NCBI GenBank assembly: GCA_965153455.1
Contig: OZ234493.1
Coordinates: forward strand, 5,952,001 to 6,016,000
DNA length: 64,000 nt
DNA from: Sphagnum compactum
Taxonomy: Eukaryota
Direction: 5' to 3'
Of this stretch, positions 4,394 to 35,300 are shown piece after piece (the stretch's first letter is position 1; every line of letters begins with the position of its first letter). The notes under the pieces are model-generated. The model did not search any database. It saw nothing but the letters and a program-made list of their open reading frames with translations, and was not told where the DNA came from. The translations under genes and the position numbers were made by a program.

Positions 4394-7114
4394 ATGGCAT
4401 TCGAAGTAGCGAGAGTGCATGGCATCATCCGCTCCAACATTCGGGAGGATGGAATCTGCTCCAAGGCAGCCGCTTCATCACCATCGTCAATGCCTGGAAG
4501 TTTTGTTCTTATTCAGGAACAAGGAGAAGCTCTGGTTCATGTACAGAAGACGCAGCAGCAGCAGACTGGGGTTGCAGATCGGTCTTGTCCTCCTTCCGGT
4601 ATACGGCGGGACGCTAGCTTCAGTGCTGCGTCGTGGTCAGATGTGGTTCCGTGTTCTTCATCGCTCGCGTCCTCCTCTCATGACTCCACAGAAGAGACCG
4701 AAAACGACGAGGAGGACGACGATGAGCTCCTTTTGGCAGGACTCGCCCAACATGTGGCGCAAACTATGCTCAATGGTGCCGCAGCCGACGACGACGACAG
4801 CGTCCTTCACACTGCCAGTGGTGTTGATGGGAAAAAAACTCACAACAGTTTGTGCACTGAAGCGAACAAGGTAGGCAATCTCTTTCTCTTCACTCTTGTG
4901 TTCCTCGCGTGTCCTGAAGAAGCAAGTATGCTTCCCTGCGTTTCCTTTGAAACGATCTTTTTCAGGGAAAAAAAAAGCCTGTCGTTTGAGAACCGCTGTC
5001 AAACTGTGGCAGGCAGCGGAGTCTTCTCCTCCATCAAGCTGGTCTAGTGGAAGCTTGTTGCAATGGCCGCAATCGGCGACAAGCAGTAGTACAGCGAGTT
5101 CCAAGGGCTCTTCCCGTATGTCATCGCAAGTCTCTTCTCCGCCAACAACTCCTGTGGAAGCAAAGCGAAGCGATGCGTGGGATTTACTACACGCCGCAGC
5201 CGGAGAAGTCGTTAGATTGAAAATGCACCAGCAGAAGAAGTCCATCATGTCTTCTTCTTCTTCTCCTACAAACAGATATCATCCGAAGCAGCTTCATCAT
5301 GTTCAATGCCAACAACAACAACCTCTGCAAGCACACTGCTTCCAGGTCCCTCCTGCAGCAGCAGCTCCTCAGATACGAACGCTGCCTGGCTGCGGCATTG
5401 TAGCAACAAATGCCCCTCCTCCTACGACTGGTATCCTGCAAGCTGCAACGATCTTACCTCACCTTAGGAACACAAATGAGAGGCGGGCTCCAATACATGG
5501 ATCATCAGCCTATCATCAGCAAGGCTGGAACTCTGCTGTTGCAAGAGGCGAGGGTCACCAACATTACAGCACCCATGTAAGGTTTTTCTTTGTAGCGTCT
5601 TTCAATATGATAGCATCCATGTAAGCTTTCCTTTGTAGCTTCTTTCAATGTTACAGCACCCATGTAAGCTTTCCTTTGTAGCTTCTTTCAATATAACAGC
5701 ACCCATTTGAACTTCTGATTAGTGGCTTCTTTTAATTTTGTTACATGACATGTTGGCGCAATCCATTCTGATTATTGAAGTCTTTTAGTAATCATTTGAA
5801 TTCGGTTTTCTGCATCAGAAGTTAGGGTTTGGGTTGATCTCAGACTAGAAGAAGAAGATGATCAGGAGCTGCTGGGCATATGATCTCTCATCTGCAACAG
5901 CACTGCAGTTCACAAGCTCTCAAACTCTGATCCTTTCTGATTCAATCTTGGTTGTCTCAGCAGCTGCAGCAAATGGCAATGGAAACTGGTGGGCCTGGAG
6001 CAGTGCTCGGGTTTCAGGCCAGGTCCTATCCTGTATTTTATCACCAGCAGCAAAGCTGCAGGCCTGTTGTTTTGCAGAAGAGTTACCAAGGACAGTGCCA
6101 ATCAGACAGGTTGGTTGATTACCACACTCCACAGTGGACCACTACTGCTGCACAGCGGGGAGGGTTAGGAATGAGAGCTGTCTTCTTGGGATCTGGAAAC
6201 TCTCAGCGTAAGTCCAGTGGTACAGGGGTATTTCTTCCTCGCAGTGTGGGAAATGGTGCTGAACTAAAAAGAAAGCCTGGTGAGTGTTCTGATCTCCATT
6301 GCTAAGTGTACTGGAACTGTAAATGTCTTGTCAAGATGGGCTTCATCTTCCCATGCTTCCGGAAATGTGAAAGCAATCCCAGGACACAGATTTTGTAGAA
6401 TATTTTGCCCAGATTTTGGGCTGATTATTATTATATATTCATTCCACTGCACTGTTGGCAGCTGATGAAGTCAGTGCGAAGTCATGGCAACTAGTCACTG
6501 CTATTAGTGATGGAGAAGCAATCAGATGGTCTGACACTTTGTGAGTGACTCTTATAAGGTTATGACCACGCTCGTTGTTATGGAGATTTTCTCTGCAATT
6601 TGGTAGATATGTTGAACTCTGACAATGTTCACCTGTTGTGGCTGGATCAACAGTTTGTTCAACTGTGCTGCTTCCATCACGGATAGTGCAGGTGTTAAAC
6701 CTGAATGTGGAGAATATGTGTTCTCATCTGTCCTTGCCTTCATCTTTTGCTCATTGTACTTCATACTCAGGCAAGTCTTCTCTGTTTGAGTCAGTTTCTG
6801 TGTGCCAAGGATGAACAAATATGCTTCAAAATCCTATTCAGACAGTGCTCCTGATTTTGCATGATACCTGGTGACAGTTCCTTCCCAAGATCATTGGTCT
6901 AACAGAAATAATTATGATGAATTGTGCAGATCACTCAGCCTCAATGCCTGCTTCACCGAGTTTTTCTTGTAATTTAGGTGTCTCTGCTATGGGACGCTCC
7001 AAACAATCATTTGAAGAGGGTTGGCTTGCCTCTTGTGGGAAGAGTTGTCCCCCATCAATGCTACGACAGAATCCTCAACCAGAGCTCTGCCTTCCCTCAG
7101 AGTGGACATACTAG
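4394..7114 (+). CDS. Plant-specific uncharacterised protein with GMRAVFLGSG...SGTGVFLPR, KP-CSTVLLPSRIVQVLNL and C-terminal LPSEWTY motifs
   Basis: Phase-consistent exons 4394-4870, 5013-5576, 5961-6279, 6654-6770 (GC donor) and 6930-7114. The motifs match a conserved land-plant family of unknown function (recalled, not searched). Confidence 0.85.
5566..5706 (+). repeat. 43-44 bp tandem repeat (~3.3 copies) spanning the exon 2 donor site
   Basis: ACAGCACCCAT|GTAAG(G/C)TTT..CTTTGTAGC.TCTTTCAAT repeated; GTAAG at 5577, 5621 and 5664. Confidence 0.9.
6340..6600 (+). mobile_element. Dispersed ~270-nt structured repeat, copy A (intron 3 of gene 1)
   Basis: Shares GCCCA..TTTTGGGC, CACTG..GCTGATGAAGTCAGTG, GTCATGGCA.CT.GTCACTGC and ACTTTGTGAGTGAC..AGGTTATGAC blocks with the copies at 13977, 14560, 20434 and 45335. 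Confidence 0.8.
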
Positions 7115-9027
7115 CTCTCAGAGCTCGGAAACCCTTAAGATGACATCTGTTTTTGGAGGGCGTGTTGTTTTGCACAGTTAAATAATTTTTGGAGATCTCA
7201 ACGAGGTGGAACTAGACACAGCAATTCATTGGCTTCAGGGAGCACAACAATGTGGAGTATTCTACTACAGCATAGAAGATTTGTGAGACAGAAGAGTCAG
7301 AGGTAGGTGCAAAGGAAATTATCATGACAACAGTGAGAAAGTTGAGAGGAGTAGAATCGTTTTTCTCTTGCTAGTCAAAAAGATGTATAGTAAGCTACCC
7401 TGATATTTTTTACTGAAGGAATGAGCCTCCTGCTCTGTACAGTAGTAGCAAGCAAATGGGCTCATGAGTATGGGTTACATTTTGGAGGCCCTTTTTTTTT
7501 CCTATGGGATATATATATATATATATACATACATACGCCTCTAGGACAGGACAGAATAAGTTGCATCCCTTCTTGGGAACTACAGCCTTACATTAATAAG
7601 TGTGCCATTAGTATATGAGCGGAAGTGTCTGGTTGATTGCTTTGGGTCTTTGCCTATTGCCATAATTTCAGTATATATCTGGCTTGACTCCAGGATTATA
7701 TTCTCAACAGGTTGTAATTTTTCTTGTAGTGGCTTCTATCAGCAGGTGTAGTGAGCAGTTTGTATGACGTATTTTTCCATCTCTGAATGTTTTCTTCATT
7801 TGTGGCTCAGCTTTGCAACAACTAACAAAGTATGATGCTACAACTCTGTTTGGTTTTTGAGATTCCCCTGAACTCTCAAGCTCTTGACCTACTTGGATGA
7901 ATAAAAAGGGCATCTTGGTAGGTTATGTACATGTTGAAAATTCAGTACAAGTGGGCTAAGGTTATTAACTGGTTATAAAATTCACTAACCGGATGGTAGG
8001 CTATGGATACCCAGGTTAATAACTCGGTCAAAACTCAAGCAGTGGACACTGGGTAAAACCCTAAACCCCAGTGTGTGTGTGTGTGTGTGTGTGTGGTGGG
8101 TGTAGTGAGAGCTTTGTGCAACCTTTAGAATGCTCTCTTTGTAACTCACAATTCTCATGCAACCCTAGAATGTATAGATGGCCATTAGTCGGACCTGGCA
8201 GAATGGCAGGTGGCATTCAGCCAGGTTTTACAATGGGCCATTATTTGACATAATTGTCGTTGGGACGCGGTAGGAACAATTTGCTGCCTTTGCACGTTCT
8301 ATGTGACAGATGAATTTGAAAGCGCAGCTGACAAGAAGAGGAAGCTTTGGGGTGAGGAGGAGCAGAATTTCACACCAGTTCATTACGCCATTCAGGAATC
8401 AGCAACAGCAAAATCCCAAATCTACTAAATCTTAAATCTACTCAAAATGTACATCTCTTTGTCACTTTGTGTGTACCACGTTTAATCTATACTACTGTTC
8501 AATGCCCCATCCATACTTCTCAATCCATTATGATAAGTCTCTGGTTTTGGTAACTTGTACAGAGTCCAGCCCTGTTAGGGGCAGTAAAGTCACATGGCCA
8601 GTGTTGGCTGTTGGGTGGTGGTTTTCTCTTTTTTTAAATGAAAGAACAGGTAGGTAAAAGGTAACCTAAATGGGCCTTCTTAGGAAAGACAGAAATTTGA
8701 AATTCTTTTGGGGTTTATGTGTTTTGTTCCCCTTTATTGTTCCCAATAACGTTCCAAAGGGTGTTCTCAATGGTACCCCAGTTCATTTTCATGTCCACAA
8801 CATTTGTTCTTTGATTGCATCCCCTATGCTTTATGAAATGTTCCTTATCTTGTTCCCTCAGTTCCCATTTTTCTTCTACATATGTTCCTTGTTTATATGT
8901 CATATGTTTTGTCAATTGTGCCCATGTTCTTCCCTCAGTTCTCAAGTGTCCTGATGTCAATCCCACTAGCCCCAATTCTTGTCTCCCATATTCCTTTGCC
9001 CAATGCCTCACTCTTCTAGCCGATGGA

Positions 9028-22836: not shown

Positions 22837-24267
22837 AGCTGCGACCAAAAACAAAGAAGCAACAATTGACGCTGCACAAGCTCCATCAAACGCAGTTTCC
22901 TTCTTGGGATCGTGACGGTCCAGATCTCGCATCCAGATCTTCTCAACGCTCCAGATCGTCCACCCAAACCCTAATCTCAAGTAGGTAAATAAATATCTTA
23001 TCCAAAGATGAAATTCTAATCGGACGGTCAAAAGCTTCCTATCGCAGAACTTCTCAACCCAATGGACGGTCATGACTTTCCCTCTAATCGCAAACGGTCA
23101 AGCTCTAGAATCTCCGACTGCGTCTATTCACATTTTACGAATTCGGTGAATAATGAACGGCTCAGATTTAGGGCAAATCACAATTGGACGGTCAAAAAAC
23201 ACAGTCAGAAACCGACCTGTTCTTTACGGGGAAATTTCTGCCTACGTTATTTTCTTAAGGTAAATCGACCGCTGTAAACCGACGGCCGAGATCCATGAGA
23301 TTAGAAGATTGGATGGTCGGATATATTCGCCTGATTTGTGAATTTGTAATCGATATTTTTGAATTTTCCATTTTTTATCATTAACGAATTTTGAAAAAAA
23401 TTGGTTCAATTTTTATCAATTTTTACACATTGCACCTTTTTTTTTTCCCTGAGTAATTAGTCCCACTTTTTCTTTACTTTTTCCCCATGGGTTATTTACC
23501 CTTGAAGTAAACTATGGTAAATGTTTCACCATTAAAATAAATTTGGATTACTTTGGATTTTCATATGGATATTAAGTTCCCTTTTAAGTATAGTATTGTA
23601 AATTTTCTTAATTTTAAATTTTAAATAATGGTGCTTCTTATTTATTCCCATTGGATTATTACCCATGGACAAATATATAATTGTTATAATATTAATCAAT
23701 TGACGAACGTCATTGGACTAATTGCTTTTTTGTATGTTCCTTGGGAAAAACCAATTATTAAATTTGGGCGTCATGTTGCTTTGCACTATCAATGACAATG
23801 ATTTTTTAAAAAATTGTGGACATAATAATTTTGTTTGTAATCAATTTTTATCTTTTCAAAAAATAAAAGTTTATAAATTTCATTATATGTCATTTTGTTT
23901 CATTAAAAAAAAAATTCATTTTTGATTTGGTAGGCAAAATGTCAATGGAAGTTCAATTCATTAAATAAGTTCACAACAAAATACAAATAGACAAAAAGAT
24001 TAAGAACATTGAAAGGGTGTAAAATAAATAATAGGATACAAATAGTCGATAACATTGCAAAGGTGCAAAACAGACAACAAGAAACAATTCTAAAATGAAA
24101 TTTGATTTATAACGAATTATAATCCAAAATGACTTTGGAATTGTTAAACATTTTTCTTTTTTTAACTTAAATGTAGCAAGGGATTATTCCTTAAAACAAT
24201 TAGTGAAATGGGTTCACACTTGTTAAGCACGTGGTTAAATACATGTTGAGTATTTTGCACAAAGGAT

Positions 24268-25216
24268 TGTAATGGAAAATGGGGTTACCCTAACTTCTGA
24301 GCGCCCACTGATCAGGGAGCCTAATTGACGTTTCTTTGAGCCGTTTTGTGTCTCTGACGGCCGCCTTTGCATTACATCTGCATGGGTTGCACCTTGGTCG
24401 AGGATCTGTGACGGCTGACTGAATGGGCATGGAGTCTGTATGGCGGCTCCGAATTATGATGAAGGATCGTGCTGCATTTATGAAGGATGGCGGTTTGGAA
24501 GCGTAAGGAGGAAGCCAAGGCGATTGGGAAGGAAGATCGAACCAAATAGAAGAGAGGCGAGGATTTTTGGGGGTCTGATGTAAGAGATATTCTGTCTGCA
24601 GAAGAATGGAGCGATGGTTAGGAAAGGATAGTGTGTAGAGGTCAGTGAAGTAGGATAGGAGCTGTGCAAATTCGGTCTCTTTTTGGAGCAGAAGCATCTG
24701 TCTGCGTAGGAAGCCGACGATGTTGAGAGAAGGCAAGTAGAGTCGGACAGAAGGAAAGGAGAAGATTCGATAGCTCGGTAGCAAGGAGTTGGTAGCCATG
24801 ATCGTGATCTTCCGCTGCGTCTGATGTATGGCTAAGCTCGTTGCTACAGGAGTTCCTAGGAGAGAGTGTGTGTGTTTTAAGGAATGATCAGACCCTCTGG
24901 TTGTGAGGAGTTGAAGTTCGAGGGCAATGCTTGTGCTCTCGGACTATGTATATAATTTGATAATGAGAATCCGGGTATTTTCTTGAGTACATTCATCTGT
25001 GAGGCATGATCAGAGTCGCATCTCGTGTCGAGTCTTGTGTTGCTGAGTCTGTTGCAACTCGGATCGAGCTGGATCGGAGATCGGGCAGGTAGGCCGTTCC
25101 CAGATAGGATGGGATAAGTGTACATGGATGTGAATCGGACTGTAAGAATGTGAGTACCCAGGGTCTGAGGGGGGGTGCAGCGCATCGGGCTGTAGGTTTC
25201 TTGGACCCGCTCTTTT
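24268..25216 (+). repeat. 5' LTR (lacks terminal TTACA)
   Basis: Starts TGTAATGG and matches 31431-32388. Ends ...CGCTCTTTT directly followed by the PBS. TATA-like TATATAA at ~24949. Confidence 0.93.
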
Positions 25217-25228
25217 TGGTATCAGAGC
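25217..25228 (+). other. Primer binding site complementary to the tRNA-iMet 3' end
   Basis: TGGTATCAGAGC, the canonical plant iMet PBS. Confidence 0.92.
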
Positions 25229-25450
25229 AGTTGCGATCTGGTAGTTCTGGATCGAACTTGAGAGTGTGGATGAGATGTCAGATGAGCGATCATGTCATCG
25301 TCAAGTCCAGAAGAAATATCGCCCGAGATATTAACACGGGTAACCCGTGAGGAAAGGCTCCTCCTTTGTTTTGATTTCTACATTAGTTAGGGAGGACCTA
25401 CCAGGGGCGCCGTAGTTTTGCGTTTTGAGGGATTTGGTGTGGTGACCATT

Positions 25451-25967
25451 ATGGGATTCGACCCGGAAGCAGCTCGCGTAGGAGACATCGCAGTCGAAAT
25501 TGATCACAGTGGATTCCATACAAGGGCAGAAGTTTGGGTGAAGGCGAGGAATGGACCGAGTGGATGGGTCTCAACCTCACGAATGCAGCACCAATATTAC
25601 TTCACGACGTACCTTGCATAAAGTGACGCCATCGTTGGCCGAGGAACTGCGTAGTATACCAAGAGTCGGTGACATCTGGGTGCCCAAGTCGATGCCCACA
25701 GCAAACCATTTTCCCCGAATATACATCCCTGGAATGGAAGATCTGTTCCAGACAGGGGATCGGGTCATCAGGATAGAACATGGAGGATCGCGCTCGCGTT
25801 TGATCTGTTGGCAGATCTGGCGTGATGCAGGAGATAGTTGGCAGTTCCAGCTAGAATCTTCAGATGAGCAAGATTTCTCTCTCAGTCCCTCTAACTTTTC
25901 AGCTTTGCCTTTGAGACCTGTTCATGAAGGCGAGCAGGCTACATTCCACGGTCGGAATAACATTTGA
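25451..25967 (+). pseudogene. Extra ORF upstream of gag (frameshifted), unknown function
   Basis: ATG 25451 MGFDPEAARVGDIAVE... overlaps the ORF 25551-25967 ...PRVGDIWVP...; protein-like composition. Confidence 0.5.
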
Positions 25968-26007
25968 TTTTTGAGAATTTTGCATTAGGAGTGAGCTTCT
26001 TAGCAGG

Positions 26008-29000
26008 ATGGCGAGTCCACAAGGACTAGATGATCTGTTCTGGGGACGTGACTGTGAGGACGTCACCGACTGGGCTGAGCGACTGACTATGGCCGCAGAA
26101 GTCCGGGATCTGACACCTGACAAATTATTCAAAATTGCCAAACTGAACCTACGAGGCCGGGCGAAAGAATGGGTTCGGCAATTGCAACTGGCGCCTGCTG
26201 ACTGGGCGGCGCTACGCACGCTCATGATACAGAAATATGGGAACATCGACGCCGATGACATCCGCATGAAGCTGGATGCCATCAAGCAAGAACCCAAGGA
26301 GCGCGTCCAAAAGTACTTCGAGCGATCGGACAAGTTGTTCTGAAAAGGTCAGATTCAGGATGTCGAACAGAGAAGGAGGTTTTTGGCCAGTTTAAGGCCA
26401 AAAATTCGGAAATTGTGTGTTGTGCGGGTGTTCGCAAATATTGAAGAACTCGTTGGAGCTGCGATTGAGGTGGAAAGAGTTCTTGGCGAACTTGGAGGGA
26501 CGCCATATGAAGCTCTTCAGGAGGAGCAGGAGGAGGATACATCCGAGAGTACCATGGAGAAGCAGGTTACCGCACTGAACAATACCCTCATCAATCTCTT
26601 CAAGGGGAATTCGCATGACTCAGCACCATCATCTTCTTCCACTGCCTTTGGAGGATGCCAGCTCTGTAAGGGTAAGGACCATCTGGCCACTGCCTGTCCG
26701 AGGCTACATGAAGCACGGCCGAAATGTGCCAAGTGTCATCTGCCGCATAGGACGGAGAACTGTGGTGTCAAATGCACTTTCTGTACAGGACTTGGTCACT
26801 CTGAGGATAAATGCTGGAAGAAGACTAAGGATGGGAAGTCAGCATCTGGGCCGACGAATTTCTTGGAGGTGATGCTTGATGACGAGGCGGCGACCGAACA
26901 GCGACTCAACAGACTATGTGGGGGTAAGAATGCATTCTCATACACTCGGGTGCCGAGAAGAAGAACTCCTGTCGATGTGACGCCAGGAGGGATCGCACCA
27001 GTTCCTGAGGCTGGGAGAGAGGGAGCTGGCCTGAACAGGGAGGTTCCTGTAAAATCCAAAATTCTCTCGCATTTTATCAAAGGGAAAATTGCTTTGTCCC
27101 ACATGGAAACTGTCCTTATGATACTAGGTGAGCTGGAGCACTTGGAAAGTTTGGTCAAACTCGCAAGAAGGAAAAGAGATTCGGAGACCACCGAAAATTA
27201 GGTTTCAGTGGTCTCTGCAACTCCATCGCTCCGAAAGATTTGCGTTAGTAAGACGCATCGGAGTAAGACTCTGCACTTACCTGTAGAGATCAGTGATTGT
27301 GTCATTGAAGGACCAGTGGATACCGGGGCATCCATGTCGGTTTTGGCTGCCGCTGCAGTGAGGGAACTAGGCATAATGCATCTTGTAACTGGAAATGAAA
27401 GTTACAAGACAGCATCTGGGGTAGTCACTCGGGCACTGGGTCGAGTGGATGAGGTACAGGTGAAAGTCGGGGGAGTACAATGTACCATGACTTTTACGGT
27501 CGTGGATACGGATGGGTACGACGTGTTACTAGGCCTGGATTTTCTGATGAAGATCGGGGCTGTGGTTGACGTAGACGAGGATTGATTCAGGTGAGGCACG
27601 GACCTGGGACACACGTGGAGGTCTTGCCACTCACCGTGGTCAATTTACTACAGAGAGTGAGCACGGGTCAAGGAGAGAATGGGACAGTGACCTGTGTGAA
27701 GAATACACTTGCTGATCGGAGTGTCTGTGTGGAATCCAATCAAGATCAGGAGGGAGCCGAAGGAGAGAAGGACGTATCCAGCTCGGATTCCGATAATGAG
27801 AATGACGAGGATGAGTTTCATGACTCAGAGTGTAATCCTCTGGAGCAGTGTGATTCTGACGATGAGTTTATGGACCCTGAACTTGAGGAGCTGATAAACT
27901 CAGAAGGAGCACAGGGAATGTTGCAACTGATGTTGCAAGATTGGACTGATGGGATCATGACGGAGGAGAACTCGGATGGAGATGACTACGCTGATTGGAT
28001 TAAGTGGTCATCCGATGCAGAAGGGAACAGGTCAACTAAGTGTGAGACCGCACGCGATGTGCTCGGGAAAGTGCTGTTACAGCAGGACAAGCCCGATCAT
28101 GGCTCAGTGATCCCAGCAATATTTCAAACCACTCACGCGAGGACTAAAGAATCTAATCGCAAGACTAAAGAGGGGTGCGTATTAGGCAACCACTCTGAGT
28201 TAGAGATTAGATGGAAGGAAATCTGTGAGCGGATCAAGGTCGACGCTGAGCTGGATGAGCAAGGGCAGCAACAACTCTGGGCAACGCTAGAGAAATACAA
28301 GGACGTCTTTGCTTGGAACAAAGGCGAACTGGGCCACTGCACTATCGGTGAGCACAGCATTGATACGCAGGGATTTCCGCCTTGCAATGCATCTCTTGGA
28401 CGACTGTCTTTCTGGGAGGAGGCTGATGTCAAAAGGCAGATTGATGTCCTGGTAGACCTAGGTAAGATGCGGCCTAGCAACTCAGAATATGCCTGTAGAG
28501 TGACGCTGCCAGTAAAGAAAGACGGGAGTAGGCGTTTATGTGGAGACTACAGACCTCTCAATGCTCAAACGCGACAAGACATGTTTCCAATGCCGCTCGT
28601 CGAAGACGTAATTGATCAGCTAGGCAAGTCAATATGGTTTACTGCTCTTAACCTACAATCTGGTTTTTGGCAAATCCGCATGGCTCCAGAAGATATGAAG
28701 AAGACAGCGCTGATCACCAAAACTGGACTCTATGATTGGACTGTGATGCCATTCGGACTAAAAAACGCGACAAGTACGTTCACACAAACCATGTCCAAGG
28801 TATTCAAGGATTTAGGGGGTGCGTTTCTGAAAGTGTTCGTGGACGACCTCAATGTAAACAGTGAGACATGGGACGACCACCTTCGGCATTTGGAGGCTGT
28901 GCTTGGCAAACTAAGGGAAGTAAATCTGAAACTCAATCCTAGCAAGTGTTGTTTCGCTGCTAAAAGCATCACCTTCTTAGGGCATGTTGTGAGCAGGGAA

Positions 29001-31412
29001 GGTATACAACCTGATCCTGGAAAGGTTAAAGCAGTCCTACACTTCCCAACTCCGAAAAGTGTTACATGTGTCAGATCTTTCCTAGGACTAACAGGCTATT
29101 ACCGAAAATACATTAAGGGCTATTCGAATCTAGCAGGCCCTTTGTTTGAGTTAACAAGAAAGGATGTTGTATTCGCATGGAATGTGAATTGTGAGCAGGC
29201 ATACCAGGCACTGAAGGCAGCACTGGTGCATGCGCCTATACTCACACGACCGGATTTTAGACGAACTTTCTGGCTGGACGTGGACTGGTCGCCCAAAGGG
29301 GTGGGAGCCATCCTGTCCCAGAAGGAAGGAAAATTTGAAAGGGTGGTGGCATATGCCAGCAAGAGCTTGACTGACACACAAAGGAGGTTTCATCCGATGG
29401 AGGGGGAGTGCTACGCTCTAATCTGGGGAATAATGCACTTCAGACAGTACTTGCATATGAAGCACTTTATCCTGCGAACGGATCACAAACCGCTAGAGTG
29501 GCTAGCGACTGTCTCTGATACGCATGGTCGAAGGGGCAGATGGGTCGGAATGTTGCAGGATTTTAGTTTTAAGATAGTGCACCGACCAGGGCTGAGGCAT
29601 ATGAACGTTGATGCCTTGAGCAGGAACCCGGTCGGATTGGCGGAGGAGGATGAGGATTTCGGTGAAGAAATCCGGGACATTGTAGGTGCCCACCCTGATG
29701 CACCTGAAGAGGAAACAGAACTCCTCTGTGTCACAGCAGGCAAGGATACTGACTGGATGGGCATCAGAAGAAAGGACAGAAGGTGTGTATAGCACAATGC
29801 CTGTTGTTTTGGCATCAATCATCAGACGGATGGCCACAGCCATTAGTTGTTCATGTTGGGTGTTGAATCTGAGGAGGAGGATTTGGAGGAATATGTTCCG
29901 GATGAAGAAGTAGCACCAGCGCCTGATGCACCTGTGCAAGAGAATGAAGAACAGGTGGTCCTGAAAAGGAAGAGGCCACAATATTACGACAGAAGACAAC
30001 AGTTGGAATTAGTGCTGGCAGCCCAGGAGCTGTCTAAATTTGGGGACCCTGATTTGAGCCCCATAGAGCTCGATGAGGAGGAAGGGTATGGTGCGGAGCA
30101 CAACTGTGCTGACATCTGGCAAGACACGGAGTGTCTGAGACTGATAAGGGAAGGTACACTGTCTGACGCAGTAGACTATCATGAGTGTAGAAGGATTCGA
30201 AAAAGGGCAAGCAATTACTGCTGGAAGGAGCAGAAGCTCTTCTTCAAGACATTGTTAGTGCCCAAACCCGAGGAGAGGCTGTCTCTGGTAAAACAGATGC
30301 ACGAAGACCTAGGGCATTTTGGTGAACAGCGAACGTTGGCAGAAATTCGACGTAAATATGTCTGGAACAGTCTAACTACAGATGTGAAGGCGATGGTCAG
30401 AGGTTGCCAACAATGCCAATTGGTGAGAAGCTCAAGAAGCATCCGATCAGGGGATGAACAACTGAAGAGCATCCCTGTTTGTGACTTTTTTCATCGAGTT
30501 GCCCTAGACACAGCAGGGCCGTTGCCCGAGACTAGATCCGGCAACAAATACATCCTGGTGGCTGTTGACCACTACTCCAAGTGGTGTGAAGCGAAGGCAG
30601 TTGCTGATCATGGAGCCAAGACAGCAGCTCGATTTCTGGAGGACGACCTGATCTGTAGGTTCGGTGTCCCGAAATTCATACTAACTGACAATGGGGGGGA
30701 ATGGGGTGCAAAATTCGAAACCATGTGCAAAGACTACGCCATCCACCACCAACGCACTGCACCACAATGGCCTCAGTGCAATGGGATGGCAGAACGAATG
30801 ATCAAAACGCTTAAGCACGGCATCACTGTTCTGGCTGCTAACCCTGCCAATATGAATTGCTGGGATGAACACCTAGCCAAAGTGCTGTTTGGATACCGAT
30901 GTGGAATCCAGGCAAGCACTAAGTTCTCTCCTTTCATGACTCTCACTAGCCACACACCTCGTTTGCGGGCTGACAACTACTTGCAGGCTTTGACTACTGA
31001 GACTGACGATGGGGATGACATAGAAGAGGCTGCAGCGCAGTTTCTGCAGAAAATGGAGCTCATTGGAAGCATCCATAACAGCGTCCTGTGTAATGTGGAG
31101 CAGGCGCAAAAACAGCAGAAGAAAGTCTATGCTGCTCGGAGAGGTAAGCATTTATTTGAGGGACTGATTGCAGGTCAAACCATGGTGAAGATGAAGAAGC
31201 CAGGGAAGAGAAGGGCTTTGAGTGCAAGTTGGGAGGGACCCTACCAGTTTATTGGACACACAGATGGAAAAGGGAACCTGGATTTTGAGGAAGGCTCCCG
31301 ACTGTGCATCATTCAGGATGGCGAAGGTCACCAATGGGAAAGATCTCGACGGGACCTCCAAATCTTCTACATTCCACCAGATCAGATGGAGCTGAGGGAC
31401 TCAACTGTTTAA
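26008..31412 (+). pseudogene. Gag-Pol polyprotein with 3 in-frame stops and 1 frameshift
   Basis: Gag from ATG 26008 with zinc knuckles; protease VDTGAS; RT LCGDYRPLN, MPFGLKNA, FVDD; RNase H DVDWS..GVGAIL..TDHKPL; integrase HEDLGH..CQQC, D-D-E and WEGPY. Stops at 26341, 27199 and 29790; frameshift at ~27575. Confidence 0.95.
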
Positions 31413-31423
31413 GAAGGGAAGGG
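31411..31423 (+). other. Polypurine tract
   Basis: AAGAAGGGAAGGG, separated from the 3' LTR by TTACATA. Confidence 0.85.
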
Positions 31424-31430
31424 TTACATA

Positions 31431-32388
31431 TGTAATGGAAAATGGGGTTACCCTAACTTCTGAGCGCCCACTGATCAGGGAGCCTAATTGACGTTTCTTT
31501 GAGCCGTTTTGTGTCTCTGACGGCCGCCTTTGCATTACATCTGCATGGGTTGCACCTTGGTCGAGGATCTGTGACGGCTGACTGAATGGGCATGGAGTCT
31601 GTATGGCGGCTCCGAATTATGATGAAGGATCGTGCTGCATTTATGAAGGATGGCGGTTTGGAAGCGTAAGGAGGAAGCCAAGGCGATTGGGAAGGAAGAT
31701 CGAACCAAATAGAAGAGAGGCGAGGATTTTTGGGGGTCTGATGTAAGAGATATTCTGTCTGCAGAAGAATGGAGCGATGGTTAGGAAAGGATAGTGTGTA
31801 GAGGTCAGTGAAGTAGGATAGGAGCTGTGCAAATTCGGTCTCTTTTTGGAGCAGAAGCATCTGTCTGCGTAGGAAGCCGACGATGTTGAGAGAAGGCAAG
31901 TAGAGTCGGACAGAAGGAAAGGAGAAGATTCGATAGCTCGGTAGCAAGGAGTTGGTAGCCATGATCGTGATCTTCCGCTGCGTCTGATGTATGGTTCAGC
32001 TCGTTGCTGCAGGAGTTCCTAGGAGAGAGAGTGTGTGTTTTGAGGAATGATCAGACCCTCTGGTTGTGAGGAGTTGAAGTTCGAGGGCAATGCTTGTGCT
32101 CTCGGACTATGTATATAATTTGATAATGAGAATCCGGGTATTTTCTTGAGTACATTCATCTGTGAGGCATGGTCAGAGTCGCATCTCGTGTCGAGTTTTG
32201 TGTTGCTGAGTCTGTTGCAACTCGGATCGAGCTGGATCGGAGATCGGGCAGGTAGGCCGTTCCCAGATAGGATGGGATAAGTGTACATGGATGTGAATCG
32301 GACTGTAAGAGTGTGAGTACCCAGGGTCTGAGGGGGGGTGCAGCGCATCGGGCTGTAGGTTTCTTGGACCCGCTCTTTTTTGGTTACA
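31431..32388 (+). repeat. 3' LTR (958 bp)
   Basis: TGTAATGG...TTTTTTGGTTACA followed by the TSD GGAT. Confidence 0.95.
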
Positions 32389-35300
32389 GGATCATTGCCA
32401 TTGGCCCCAAGTGCAAACAAAATATGTAACTAGTTTAAATGTCAATAGGACCTAGACAATAGAGGTCAATTGTGAAAAGATTATTTTTAATTTTTAATTA
32501 TTTTCTAATCATGAAAATTACTCAAATTCAAATTTTCCCCCACCTTAGGTCTACAAATTATGAAATCGTCACCAAGAAACTCCACTCATCAAGGTTTTTC
32601 CAACAATACCAAAAATTCACCCCAATTACCTTTTAATACTTAAAGTTTTCATTTTCTTGGATTTTTTGACAAAATTGTCCAATATTCAATTTAGTGCAAT
32701 AATATTGGAATCATTTTTCAATCAAATGGTTGAATATTGAATAAATTTTCAAATAAAAACATTCCAAATTCAATTGGATTTTTGAAATTTTTAATGCCAA
32801 AAATGTCAAATTGTTGAAATTTCAAGCTACATAATGCCAAAAATTCTAAAAATCTAGAAAGTTTATAAGCCATGGTCATTAACATGTCATTACAATTATA
32901 TGCACTTTGTTTTGCAAATAATCTAGGATTAAAATTTGGTGAAAAATGGGATATAATGTGTGCAATTTTTTCCTAAATATCAACATCTAACATTTGGTTT
33001 TTGAATTCATGGAAATTTCTTGCTTAAATTTCTCACCCATTGTCAACAACACAAATCTTCCACACATCCTCATGCAATTAATTACATTTTGAGGTTAGTA
33101 AATGTGAATTGAAATGTTATAAACCTTTAGAAAAACACCAAAGAAAATGTAAACAAGAATGAAAAAATGTAACACATCAATATCTATATCAAAATGGATG
33201 AAAAAGATTGACATCCTCATTCATGGAAAAAATATGATTTTTTTTTAAATGCAAGTTGAAAATCTTGGAAAATATTATATTACATGTCAAGATGCATTTT
33301 AATAATTAAATCAATTATTTTACACTAAGGCGCCAAATTTGTTAAAGTATTATAGTAGGTTTTTTGACCCTATTATAAAATGGGTGTTTTTCCACAAATT
33401 TATCCAATTGAACATCTTTTTTTTATTAAAATCATCCCAAGTTGTTTGAATTTTTTTCCACTCAACACATCCTTTGCCACCACCATTTATCATCATTATT
33501 ATGGCAAGAATAGAGATGACCCTTTTGTTAAATCCTTATAAGGTCCATAACTCCAATTTGTTCAATTTCATTTTGTCATATTATTACATTAGCAACCAAA
33601 GCTCAATAACTTCAAGAAAAATAGGTATCAAAGTACCATTAGAAGATCATATGTGGTTAGTAAACTTCTTTCATATCATAACCATTTTTGGGGGCTAAAT
33701 TTTCATCGCTTGGAAACACACCAAAAAAAAAGGCATCACACATCCTACAAAGGTTCTTTTTTGGGAAAAAATGGCCCAAATTCACTGATTTTGAAAAATA
33801 AAATAAAATCACCATATTTAAACATTAAAATCTAGCATGTCACCAAAATGTAGCAAAAATTAAGAATCTCCTCCTTGTCTTCCATTTCAATCACCTTTAT
33901 ATGCTTAAAAGCCTTTCTTTTTCCATATATGTTTTTGTTTCATTCTTGTCCCGTTGGAACAAGATGAATGTTTCACAAGATTCACGACACATTTGAATTT
34001 TTATCATGTTTTAACATATAACTCGCTTTCTTTGATATATTTTAGCATATAATTTTTTTCTCTTTGATATGGTCTTTCTATTTCATCCTTTTTTTTCCCG
34101 TTTTATTTTTATTTTTCTCCATGTCTGCCTCTTTTTCTCCATTTTTTTATTTACTTATGTTAAGGGTAAAAATTCCTAAGCTAATTAGTTCCATGGTCAT
34201 CCTAGTAATTAGATGGTTATTAGTGGTAAATTTATCGTGTTTTACCAAAGATTGAAGCTAAGGGGGTGGGTTAGTTGAATGGTCATCCTACTAATCATCT
34301 AGTGGATTTTTAAGAAAGATTAGGATAAGGACCTAGGTATTTTCACGAAGTTCATATGGGCCTTGTGTGGTCTTGTCAAAAAAAAGAAATTAAAAGGACA
34401 AAAGGAGAACTTTAGATTATTTTATGATATTGTAGATTGAATTTGGGGGGGGGGGGGGGGGGTGTTCATTACAAGAACAAAAATAATGTATGTGACATTG
34501 GATAGGAGGAGACTATGGAAGCAAGTTGTATTCTCATTCTTGTAGTGGAAAATGGTTGATGGAATCACCTAGTTTTTTCTTGTTTTTTGTTTTATTTGAA
34601 GTATGAGAGAGAGACATGGTGCATAGTTCATATTATGACTATATAAAGTTTGTTGTGTTCATATATTAGTTTTGCGTTTCTTCTATAAGATTAAGAATAT
34701 TATCTACTATATGTGGTAGTTTTTGGAATAAAAAGTACATTCTATCACAAGATGGTAACTGCCATTGAAAGGGAGTAACAAGGAGGTAGACCTCACATTT
34801 GAGGTCTACAAAGAGGGTAATGTTGTTGGAGTTGGCATGCAATAGCCACAGAGGGTCTATAGGTGTTGTTGAGGGGAAACATGTGAGACTTGCAAACCCA
34901 TTGTTTGAATAATTTATCACCATATATTAGAGGGTCTTGAAGGTAATTACCTTCCAACCCCCTCTCTCTAATTTTCTAGTTTAAACTCCTTTACTACATG
35001 GGTTTTACTAAATCGAATAGTGTTATGATTAAATAGTAAAACTATCCTCATAGGATACGTCCTTCATATTGCATTTCCTTCTACATAAAATACTACTCAA
35101 TAATAGAGTTAGTGAGTGATAATCGTTCTCTTGGAGGTAGAAATAATTTTTATATGTTGTCCTCAACATTTCCCTCGTGAGGACAATACTGTTTAGGGAT
35201 CGCATTTTCACCCCATTACAACTTTTCTCTCATTATTTCTCTTTCTTCATACTAGTATGGAAAGGTGGATGGTATGAATTCTTTAATCATAGACCACACA

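Follow-up and report, generated by a model that had tools for sequence, protein, structure and literature searches.

A long terminal repeat (LTR) retrotransposon of the Ty3/gypsy class (Metaviridae), 8,121 bp long and lying in a 64,000-nucleotide stretch of the Sphagnum compactum genome (contig OZ234493.1; hereafter, the window), lacks the terminal CA in the U5 region of its 5' LTR, and the missing tip recurs next to the polypurine tract (PPT) as one half of a palindrome with the form of an LTR-LTR junction. The end that integrase recognizes on the right, T[T/G]ACA, has probably moved out of U5, and would then be present once in the RNA, directly 3' of the PPT, where 2 bases and TGTRA follow it. 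A wider reading, which we regard as evenly poised, is that a moss Ty3/gypsy clade no longer keeps its right attachment (att) end in U5 and stores it once in the post-PPT palindrome, every transposition passing through an LTR-LTR junction (a 2-LTR circle, or an open circle or concatemer made by reverse transcriptase (RT)) that is cut by the element's own DDE integrase. The hosts of the element family are probably mosses.

The two LTRs of the element have different ends

The U5 region of the 5' LTR ends ...GGACCCGCTCTTTT, and the next base already belongs to the primer-binding site (PBS) TGGTATCAGAGC (25217-25228), which we take to pair with the 3' end of plant initiator tRNA-Met. No CA tip of U5 precedes the PBS, and in the window copy the nearest upstream CA is approximately 45 nt away. 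The 3' LTR, by contrast with this tip-less end, terminates ...GGACCCGCTC-TTTTTT-GG-TTACA at 32388 (T run 32376-32381, GG 32382-32383, TTACA 32384-32388). The two LTRs differ at 8 of 950 aligned bases (99.16% identity by blastn), and their identity continues past U5 through TGGT to 25220. At the far end of the interior, the PPT AAGAAGGGAAGGG is followed by TTACATA and then by the LTR start TGTAATGG at 31431, so that TTACA-TA-TGTAA (31424-31435) forms a perfect 12-bp palindrome, made up of a right-end CA, 2 nt and the TG of the left end. The GGTTACA after the PPT equals the GGTTACA of the right tip in 7 of 7 letters. An earlier, sequence-only reading of this stretch had drawn attention to these features, and all the letters that it reported are in place at the 5' LTR/PBS junction, the PPT, the spacer and the 3' end.

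The palindrome by itself is not rare. A 15-mer query for it at up to 2 mismatches gave 1 match against an expected 0.19, with at least one match in 18 of 100 shuffles, and a chance copy lies in the AT-rich flank of another family locus (L010/L024); the PBS query, with up to 1 mismatch allowed, matched once in the window (0.26 expected; at least one in 25 of 100 shuffles). What raises the asymmetry above chance is its position together with its conservation across all the family copies seen and both related families.

The end of U5, GCTCT, is complementary to the end of the PBS, AGAGC, and a 5-bp hairpin could form there (25209-25228). It is not conserved in the related family L001 and probably carries no weight.

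The asymmetric ends recur in other copies and in two related families

Other copies were sought in metagenome contigs, using an exact 20-mer from the LTR end, and in public sequencing runs (24 listed, 18 with part of the stretch, 3 labelled 'moss metagenome'). The contig scan gave 24 loci, 23 of which belong to the family; the remaining one (L011) was rejected as a chance match. Of these 23 LTR ends, 22 adjoin unique flank, representing 13 insertion sites once the same site in different samples had been merged (L029 and L008 are one such site). The 22 ends read ...CTCTTTT-T(T)GG-TTACA plus flank, except for L018 (TTATA), L029 (TTTGTTACA) and L026/27, a diverged subfamily with the right tip TGACA. 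With the window copy included, all 14 independent right ends carry TGG-T[T/G]ACA or a one-base variant of it; TGG is exact at every one of these sites, and the tip is TTACA at all 12 unmutated family ends.

The T run that precedes this tip has five T's at 10 of the 14 right ends and six at 4. With five T's, the right end is simply the U5 sequence CTCTTTT, then TGG, then the post-PPT pentamer TTACA, unchanged. This is exactly the junction that the sequence-only reading had predicted, and the 'one extra T' that it had to allow for in the window copy is a minority variant. Among the six-T sites, L015/30 and L021/23/25 share one LTR variant, which is not present in the window copy and L008.

The tip-less 5' end is found elsewhere as well. 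L022 is a 5' LTR at a different locus and reads ...CTCTTTT-TGGTATCAAAGC, running straight into the PBS TGGTATCA with no TTACA. At L025, the 3' LTR is preceded by AAGAAGGGAGGGG-TTACATA-TGTAATGG, in which the PPT ends GGGG. Two related families, L001 and L002, were obtained by protein search of IMG/VR contigs and have integrases that are 66-71% identical to that of the window copy. In L001, the PPT end GGGG is followed by TTACAGA and the LTR start TGTGACC, and U5 ..CACTTTCTTT (LTR end ...CCACTTTCTTT) stands directly before the PBS TGGTATCAGAGC. In L002, the PPT end GGGG is followed by TGACATA and the LTR start TGTAACC, and U5 ..CCCTCTTCTTT stands directly before a decayed PBS, TAGTATCAGAGT.

Taken over all copies seen, the asymmetry is general, which the sequence-only reading had named as support for its proposal: the tip is present at 14 of 14 right ends, and U5 has no CA tip at any of the 4 independent 5' junctions (window, L022, L001 and L002). 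The canonical arrangement, with the same U5 tip in both LTRs and CA plus 0-3 nt before the PBS, is found at none of these four junctions. Neither did we find a 5' LTR ending ...GGTTACA before the PBS, the observation that had been named beforehand as decisive against the proposal: a regular-expression search for T[TG]ACA, 0-12 nt and the PBS had no match in the window plus all collected loci apart from 29 chance-hit ones. The 7-nt spacer T[T/G]ACA[T/G]A is present at all four PPT/LTR junctions (window, L025, L001 and L002), being identical to the window in L025; accordingly, the palindrome is kept in L025 and has one mismatch each in L001 and L002.

Further searches added no members to this clade. 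In viral contigs, the RT protein query returned L001 only, while the integrase alignment query and the degenerate PPT-spacer-LTR motif each returned L001 and L002 only. An 18-mer from the L001 LTR end matched L001 and 24 unrelated low-complexity sequences, that from the L002 LTR end matched L002 only, and a 17-mer from the end of the window LTR had 4 matches, all of them unrelated chance matches. In genome contigs, the integrase alignment produced 268 pattern matches and 0 relatives. The L001 and L002 LTRs had no blastn match in the window or L001-L030, and a tblastn search of the collected loci with RT and integrase found no further element of the clade, the single 27% match, in L013, being to another gypsy type.

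Several side observations concern these sequences. The L001 and L002 contigs are collapsed 'circular' assemblies, in which one LTR and the interior are closed through the repeat (L001, 1-97 = 7724-7820; L002, 1-122 = 7080-7201; end overlaps of 97 and 122 nt). Both carry many stop codons, and they are listed as 'viral genomes' in IMG/VR but are not free viruses. In L025 (1-343), similarity to the window element ahead of the 3' LTR is confined to approximately 40 nt, beginning at CTGAGGGACTC and taking in the PPT and spacer, with unrelated sequence upstream to the contig end; this could be a non-autonomous derivative that keeps the PPT/junction segment or a rearranged copy. Three contigs of run X1 match the interior through TGTAA at window position 31435 and then enter a different LTR start, CCCTAAATTAGGTTACATC, which indicates a sister subfamily with the same PPT-spacer-TGTAA segment and a diverged U3. 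At window positions 24554/31716, other copies (one contig each in X10 and X3) have a 23-24-nt U3 insertion beside a one-base gap, i.e., LTR length is polymorphic. On the 5' junction, runs X3, X10 and X15 give no firm information, their unitigs breaking near 25182-25228. A 900-nt X1 contig crosses 25216 without a gap, in agreement with the tip-less junction; it possibly comes from the window locus itself and was not counted as independent.

The window copy is a true insertion with a 4-bp target site duplication

A 1,316-nt contig from run X3 contains the empty site, with 24262 joined to 32388, 8,125 bases skipped and 5 ambiguous letters at the joint. Since the 8,125 skipped bases equal the 8,121 bp of the element plus a 4-bp target site duplication (TSD), the window copy is a true insertion, and it is fairly recent. 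Four solo LTRs on metagenome contigs (L010/L024, L013, L017 and L018), with ends TGTAA/TATAA...TTACA/TTATA, carry perfect 4-bp TSDs (ATAC, CCAG, ATAA and GTAC), so that together with GGAT in the window exact 4-bp TSDs are present at 5 of 5 checkable sites. We therefore correct the TSD length from the 5 bp originally reported to 4 bp; the fifth shared letter of the X3 joint is a coincidental A. For comparison, the part of Neumann et al. drawn on here (PMC6317226) gives 5-bp TSDs for 93.4% of plant LTR elements and 4-bp TSDs for 6.2%.

The absence of the insertion from the X3 contig indicates that the element is polymorphic among the organisms holding this region. Run X15 has a looser joint, 24171 to 32480, with 8 other letters in between.

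Canonical reverse transcription leaves the right end without a template

During canonical reverse transcription, minus-strand DNA starts beside the PBS, and the 5' U5 of the RNA is the source of both U5 copies. On its right, the linear cDNA then ends in U5, extended at most by a few bases for which tRNA left by RNase H is the template. Given that U5 has no CA here, and that both U5 copies come from the 5' U5, the canonical linear cDNA would end ...CTCTTTT(TGG), with no CA for integrase to act on. Canonical reverse transcription cannot supply the right-end CA, and this part of the sequence-only reading, made for a single copy, stands family-wide.

The sole TTACA available in the RNA genome is the copy after the PPT. 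At the same time, the exact TG...CA ends and the clean 4-bp duplications indicate concerted two-ended DDE integration of a proper TG...CA molecule. Judged from the sequence comparisons, templating of the right att end from the post-PPT junction copy would account for such a molecule and is well supported.

A proposed LTR-LTR junction intermediate

We think it probable that the two ends of the cDNA, right and left, are first linked, either through ligation or through an RT jump on GGT microhomology, and that integrase then cuts the CA-TA-TG palindrome. Plus-strand synthesis would start right after the G run of the PPT, giving the cDNA a left end of TTACATA-TGTAA..., and the right end would extend beyond U5 by 3-4 bases templated by the tRNA primer, TGG(T). 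Once made continuous, the two ends would read ...CTCTTTT-TGG-TTACA-TA-TGTAATGG..., which is an LTR-LTR junction (U5-TGG-TTACATATGTAA-U3). Integrase would cut after both CA's of CA-TA-TG, with the 2-nt stagger of normal 3' processing, and insertion would follow. The daughter insertion would have the layout that is observed, which would be heritable and would reproduce itself in the next round.

Two routes to the joint can be envisaged. Host end-joining would yield a 2-LTR circle; alternatively, RT could switch templates via GGT, leaving the remnant of the tRNA for the complement of the PPT end. The GGT overlap (PBS TGGT versus GGGT, the PPT plus the first spacer base) is found in all three families, and because it is kept there and TGG is exact at every independent right end, we lean slightly towards an RT jump. 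A further reason is that a full 2-LTR circle holds two identical palindromes, and cuts on the PPT side should leave tandem-LTR insertions, of which there are none among the 23 LTR ends. Either integrase distinguishes the two palindromes, or no full circle is made. For the obligate circular intermediate that had been put forward from the sequence, this means that the basis of the argument, the absence of the right end from U5, holds; the circle itself does not follow from it, as no junction molecule was seen and an RT jump gives the same genomic footprint.

A number of points weigh against the junction mechanism. None of the 23 family LTR ends is an LTR-LTR junction (none is followed by TATGTAATGG); the junction motif TGGT[TG]ACA[TG]ATGT is absent from the scanned loci, where its lone regular-expression match lies in L002 coding sequence and is unrelated; and there is no LTR-LTR joint among the 15 run-contig joints listed, of 21 in all. 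The tandem-LTR insertions expected from PPT-side cuts of a 2-LTR circle were not found among the same ends. The L001 and L002 families, in which the post-PPT pentamer and the inverted repeat of the LTR start differ (TTACA versus TCACA in L001; TGACA versus TTACA in L002), yielded no 3' ends in our searches. L026/27 end in TGACA, which equals the post-PPT pentamer of L002, and their own PPT region lies outside the contigs. Four of the 14 sites, among them the window copy, have an extra T, which could be inherited or newly made at each junction. Finally, there are only 4 independent 5' junctions, two of them in the collapsed L001 and L002 assemblies, and the absence of the 3' LTR tip from the RNA is an assumption, R being unmapped.

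Alternative explanations

The best surviving alternative dispenses with a joined molecule: the left end would be joined to the target and host repair would copy the internal TTACA-TA-TGTAA, or the palindrome would have some other role, such as RNase H positioning or integrase docking, and the tip would come from another source. The lack of any junction molecule in the data fits this idea, as does the fact that the palindrome is an inverted repeat of the LTR start, so that its conservation could reflect integrase binding alone. We nevertheless consider it unlikely, since exact 4-bp TSDs at all five checkable sites are the signature of concerted two-ended DDE integration. Repair would, moreover, be expected to leave ragged right ends, whereas the 14 right ends vary only by one T and by point mutations.

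It is also conceivable that the family replicates canonically from masters that were not seen, with ..TTACA plus PBS, and that the copies at hand are dead-end daughters that lost the tip of the 5' LTR during reverse transcription or by slippage. The small number of independent 5' junctions leaves room for this, particularly as the exact 20-mer metagenome scan recovered just one of them, and the examined copies are decayed (the window copy, L001 and L002 all have stop codons). However, no canonical RT step deletes the U5 tip from the 5' LTR alone, and the same layout in three families, whose integrases are approximately 30% different, points to inheritance and not to a recurrent accident. The L001 and L002 sequences are, in addition, the majority paths of multi-copy assemblies, and no indel at 25213-25220 is listed in four runs (contigs break near the junction in three). 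We regard hidden masters as improbable.

A linear pathway in which the tip is copied from the primer fares worse still and is, in our judgement, very improbable. RNase H would leave 8 nt of tRNA, and TGGTTACA would be the copy of a primer ending ...UGUAACCA. TGGTTACA does resemble the first 8 bases of the PBS, TGGTATCA, in having the same length, TGGT and CA, and in HIV-1 (human immunodeficiency virus 1) a retained primer base gets copied. But a copy of initiator tRNA-Met would read TGGTATCA and not TGGTTACA, and the 12 unmutated ends uniformly have TTACA. The primer would have to be a tRNA beginning UACA, which to our knowledge would be most unusual. This pathway also leaves unexplained why the same pentamer follows the PPT, and why the TGACA of L026/27 matches the post-PPT pentamer of L002.

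Lastly, a private deletion in the window copy, by which an original ...TTTTTGGTTACA plus PBS lost 8 bases between TGGT repeats, has in its favour that slippage is conceivable between the TGGT at the 3' LTR end and that at the PBS start and that the T run differs by one between the window LTRs, but is refuted by the TTACA-less junctions of L022 (at a different locus), L001 and L002, no copy with TTACA before the PBS having been found.

Features of the window copy

The interval 24268-32388 is a single LTR retrotransposon, and its features are collected in Table 1. Two direct LTRs, integrated ends TGTAA...TTACA (TG...CA) and a short TSD are all present, as are a tRNA PBS beside the 5' LTR and a PPT beside the 3' LTR. 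Pfam places the domains along 27202-31412 in the order protease, RT, RNase H and integrase, which is the Ty3/gypsy arrangement; five open reading frames (ORFs) were scanned, 2 of which matched no family. The solved chains nearest to the integrase are Ty3 Gag-Pol (7q5b, 2.3e-18) and, second, the integrase of prototype foamy virus (PFV; 1.5e-16). The integrase ORF, whose end lies at the PPT, has no chromodomain (the mark of chromoviruses) at E <= 0.001, and there is no tyrosine recombinase match in the five ORFs. A protein cluster search returned generic RT/RNase H clusters from many phyla and was uninformative for the clade. No second copy of the element was found within the 64-kb window by self-search.

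Table 1. Coordinates of the element's features in the window
Feature	Position	Strand	Evidence
5' TSD copy, GGAT, 4 bp	24264..24267	.	X3 empty-site contig; solo-LTR TSDs
5' LTR, start TGTAATGG, U5 end CGCTCTTTT, no terminal TTACA/CA	24268..25216	+	LTR-LTR alignment, blastn
PBS TGGTATCAGAGC	25217..25228	+	Sequence; same PBS after U5 in L022 and L001, decayed in L002
gag-like region, stop-interrupted, no Pfam match	25542..27201	+	
Aspartic protease	27202..27585	+	PF13975, E 9.4e-15
Reverse transcriptase and RNase H	27570..29792	+	PF00078, E 9.1e-30; PF17917, E 2.1e-30
Integrase, HHCC zinc finger and rve DDE core	29847..31412	+	PF17921, E 1.9e-17; PF00665, E 1e-12
Polypurine tract AAGAAGGGAAGGG, overlapping the integrase stop codon	31411..31423	+	Sequence; PPTs with at least 3 terminal G's co-positioned in L025, L001 and L002
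Post-PPT spacer TTACATA, 7 nt (pentamer TTACA + dinucleotide TA)	31424..31430	+	Identical in L025
3' LTR, end CGCTC-T6-GG-TTACA	31431..32388	+	Same end at 13 further insertion sites
3' TSD copy, GGAT	32389..32392	.	

The window copy is defective, with in-frame stop codons at 26341-26343 and 27199-27201 and a missing base. Near 27574, it is without one base that is present in contigs of all four compared runs, which is why the frame of RT and RNase H differs from that of the protease. Position 27199 has another letter in all four of these runs, so that the run copies appear less degraded than that in the window.

Discussion

The element resembles plant non-chromovirus Ty3/gypsy elements, e.g., the short ones of the moss Phygy clade (Neumann et al. 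2019), in having two TG...CA LTRs, an initiator-tRNA PBS, a PPT, the order protease, RT, RNase H and integrase, and a polyprotein that fills the interior. Unlike them, it has no CA beside the PBS, and it has a conserved 7-nt spacer between PPT and LTR that repeats the right tip. The NCGN target preference given for Phygy in the part of that source drawn on here (PMC6317226) is not apparent in our five sites (GGAT, ATAC, CCAG, ATAA and GTAC).

The proposed cut has precedents among retroviruses. As far as the consulted portions of two reports go, PFV integrase cuts the palindrome of an LTR-LTR junction and produces both processed ends in one reaction, with loss of the 2 bases between CA and TG (Delelis et al. 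2005, PMC1180852), and HIV-1 integrase tetramers cut their cognate LTR-LTR junction in vitro (Delelis et al. 2007, PMC1905944). Like the palindrome described here, these 2-LTR junctions have the form ...CA-NN-TG..., in which one concerted cut gives two 3'-processed ends, and the 2-base spacing is that of PFV. In retroviruses, however, U5 carries the CA, linear DNA can itself integrate and circles serve, if at all, as an optional side route, whereas for this moss element the canonical linear product would have no right CA, and integration would always need a junction or a copy of it.

A parallel of another kind is offered by DIRS-1, whose internal complementary region (ICR) places both tips side by side and, according to an excerpt of the source (PMC7192593), is essential for retrotransposition. 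Both in the DIRS-1 ICR and in the split direct repeats of Ngaro/PAT elements, an internal pair of tips restores end sequence that is missing from the RNA or cDNA, as we propose here. The likeness is one of logic and not of ancestry: DIRS elements have a tyrosine recombinase, inverted or split repeats and an 88-bp ICR, and the present element combines a DDE integrase with direct LTRs, 4-bp TSDs and a junction copy of 12 bp. In an insect gypsy lineage, the LTR and the PBS overlap by one base, as stated in the portion of the report drawn on (PMC3286476), which is comparable to the overlap of TGG(T) here; there, the LTRs are equal, while here 4-5 more bases, (T)TACA, are present in the 3' LTR only. 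Our literature search, of incomplete coverage, found no integrase-bearing LTR element described with a tip-less 5' LTR or with a PPT spacer that repeats the tip, and an earlier description is possible.

Whether junction forms take part in integration has been debated since the 1980s, and for foamy virus and HIV we know only of support that is indirect or was obtained in vitro. Programs for finding LTRs that rely on identical tips, with TG..CA in both LTRs and an adjoining TSD, may stop 4 nt before the true boundary and overlook the TSD; where boundaries are misplaced in this way, such families could be mis-annotated or discarded. If the proposed mechanism is true, an LTR element with an integrase has independently evolved the DIRS-type logic of keeping its ends as internal copies. 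The family would, moreover, be the first case in nature of a retroelement with a retroviral-type integrase that has to integrate from the 'dead-end' junction form, and with a linear cDNA that has no right att end and yet many clean insertions, the question would become directly testable in a plant system.

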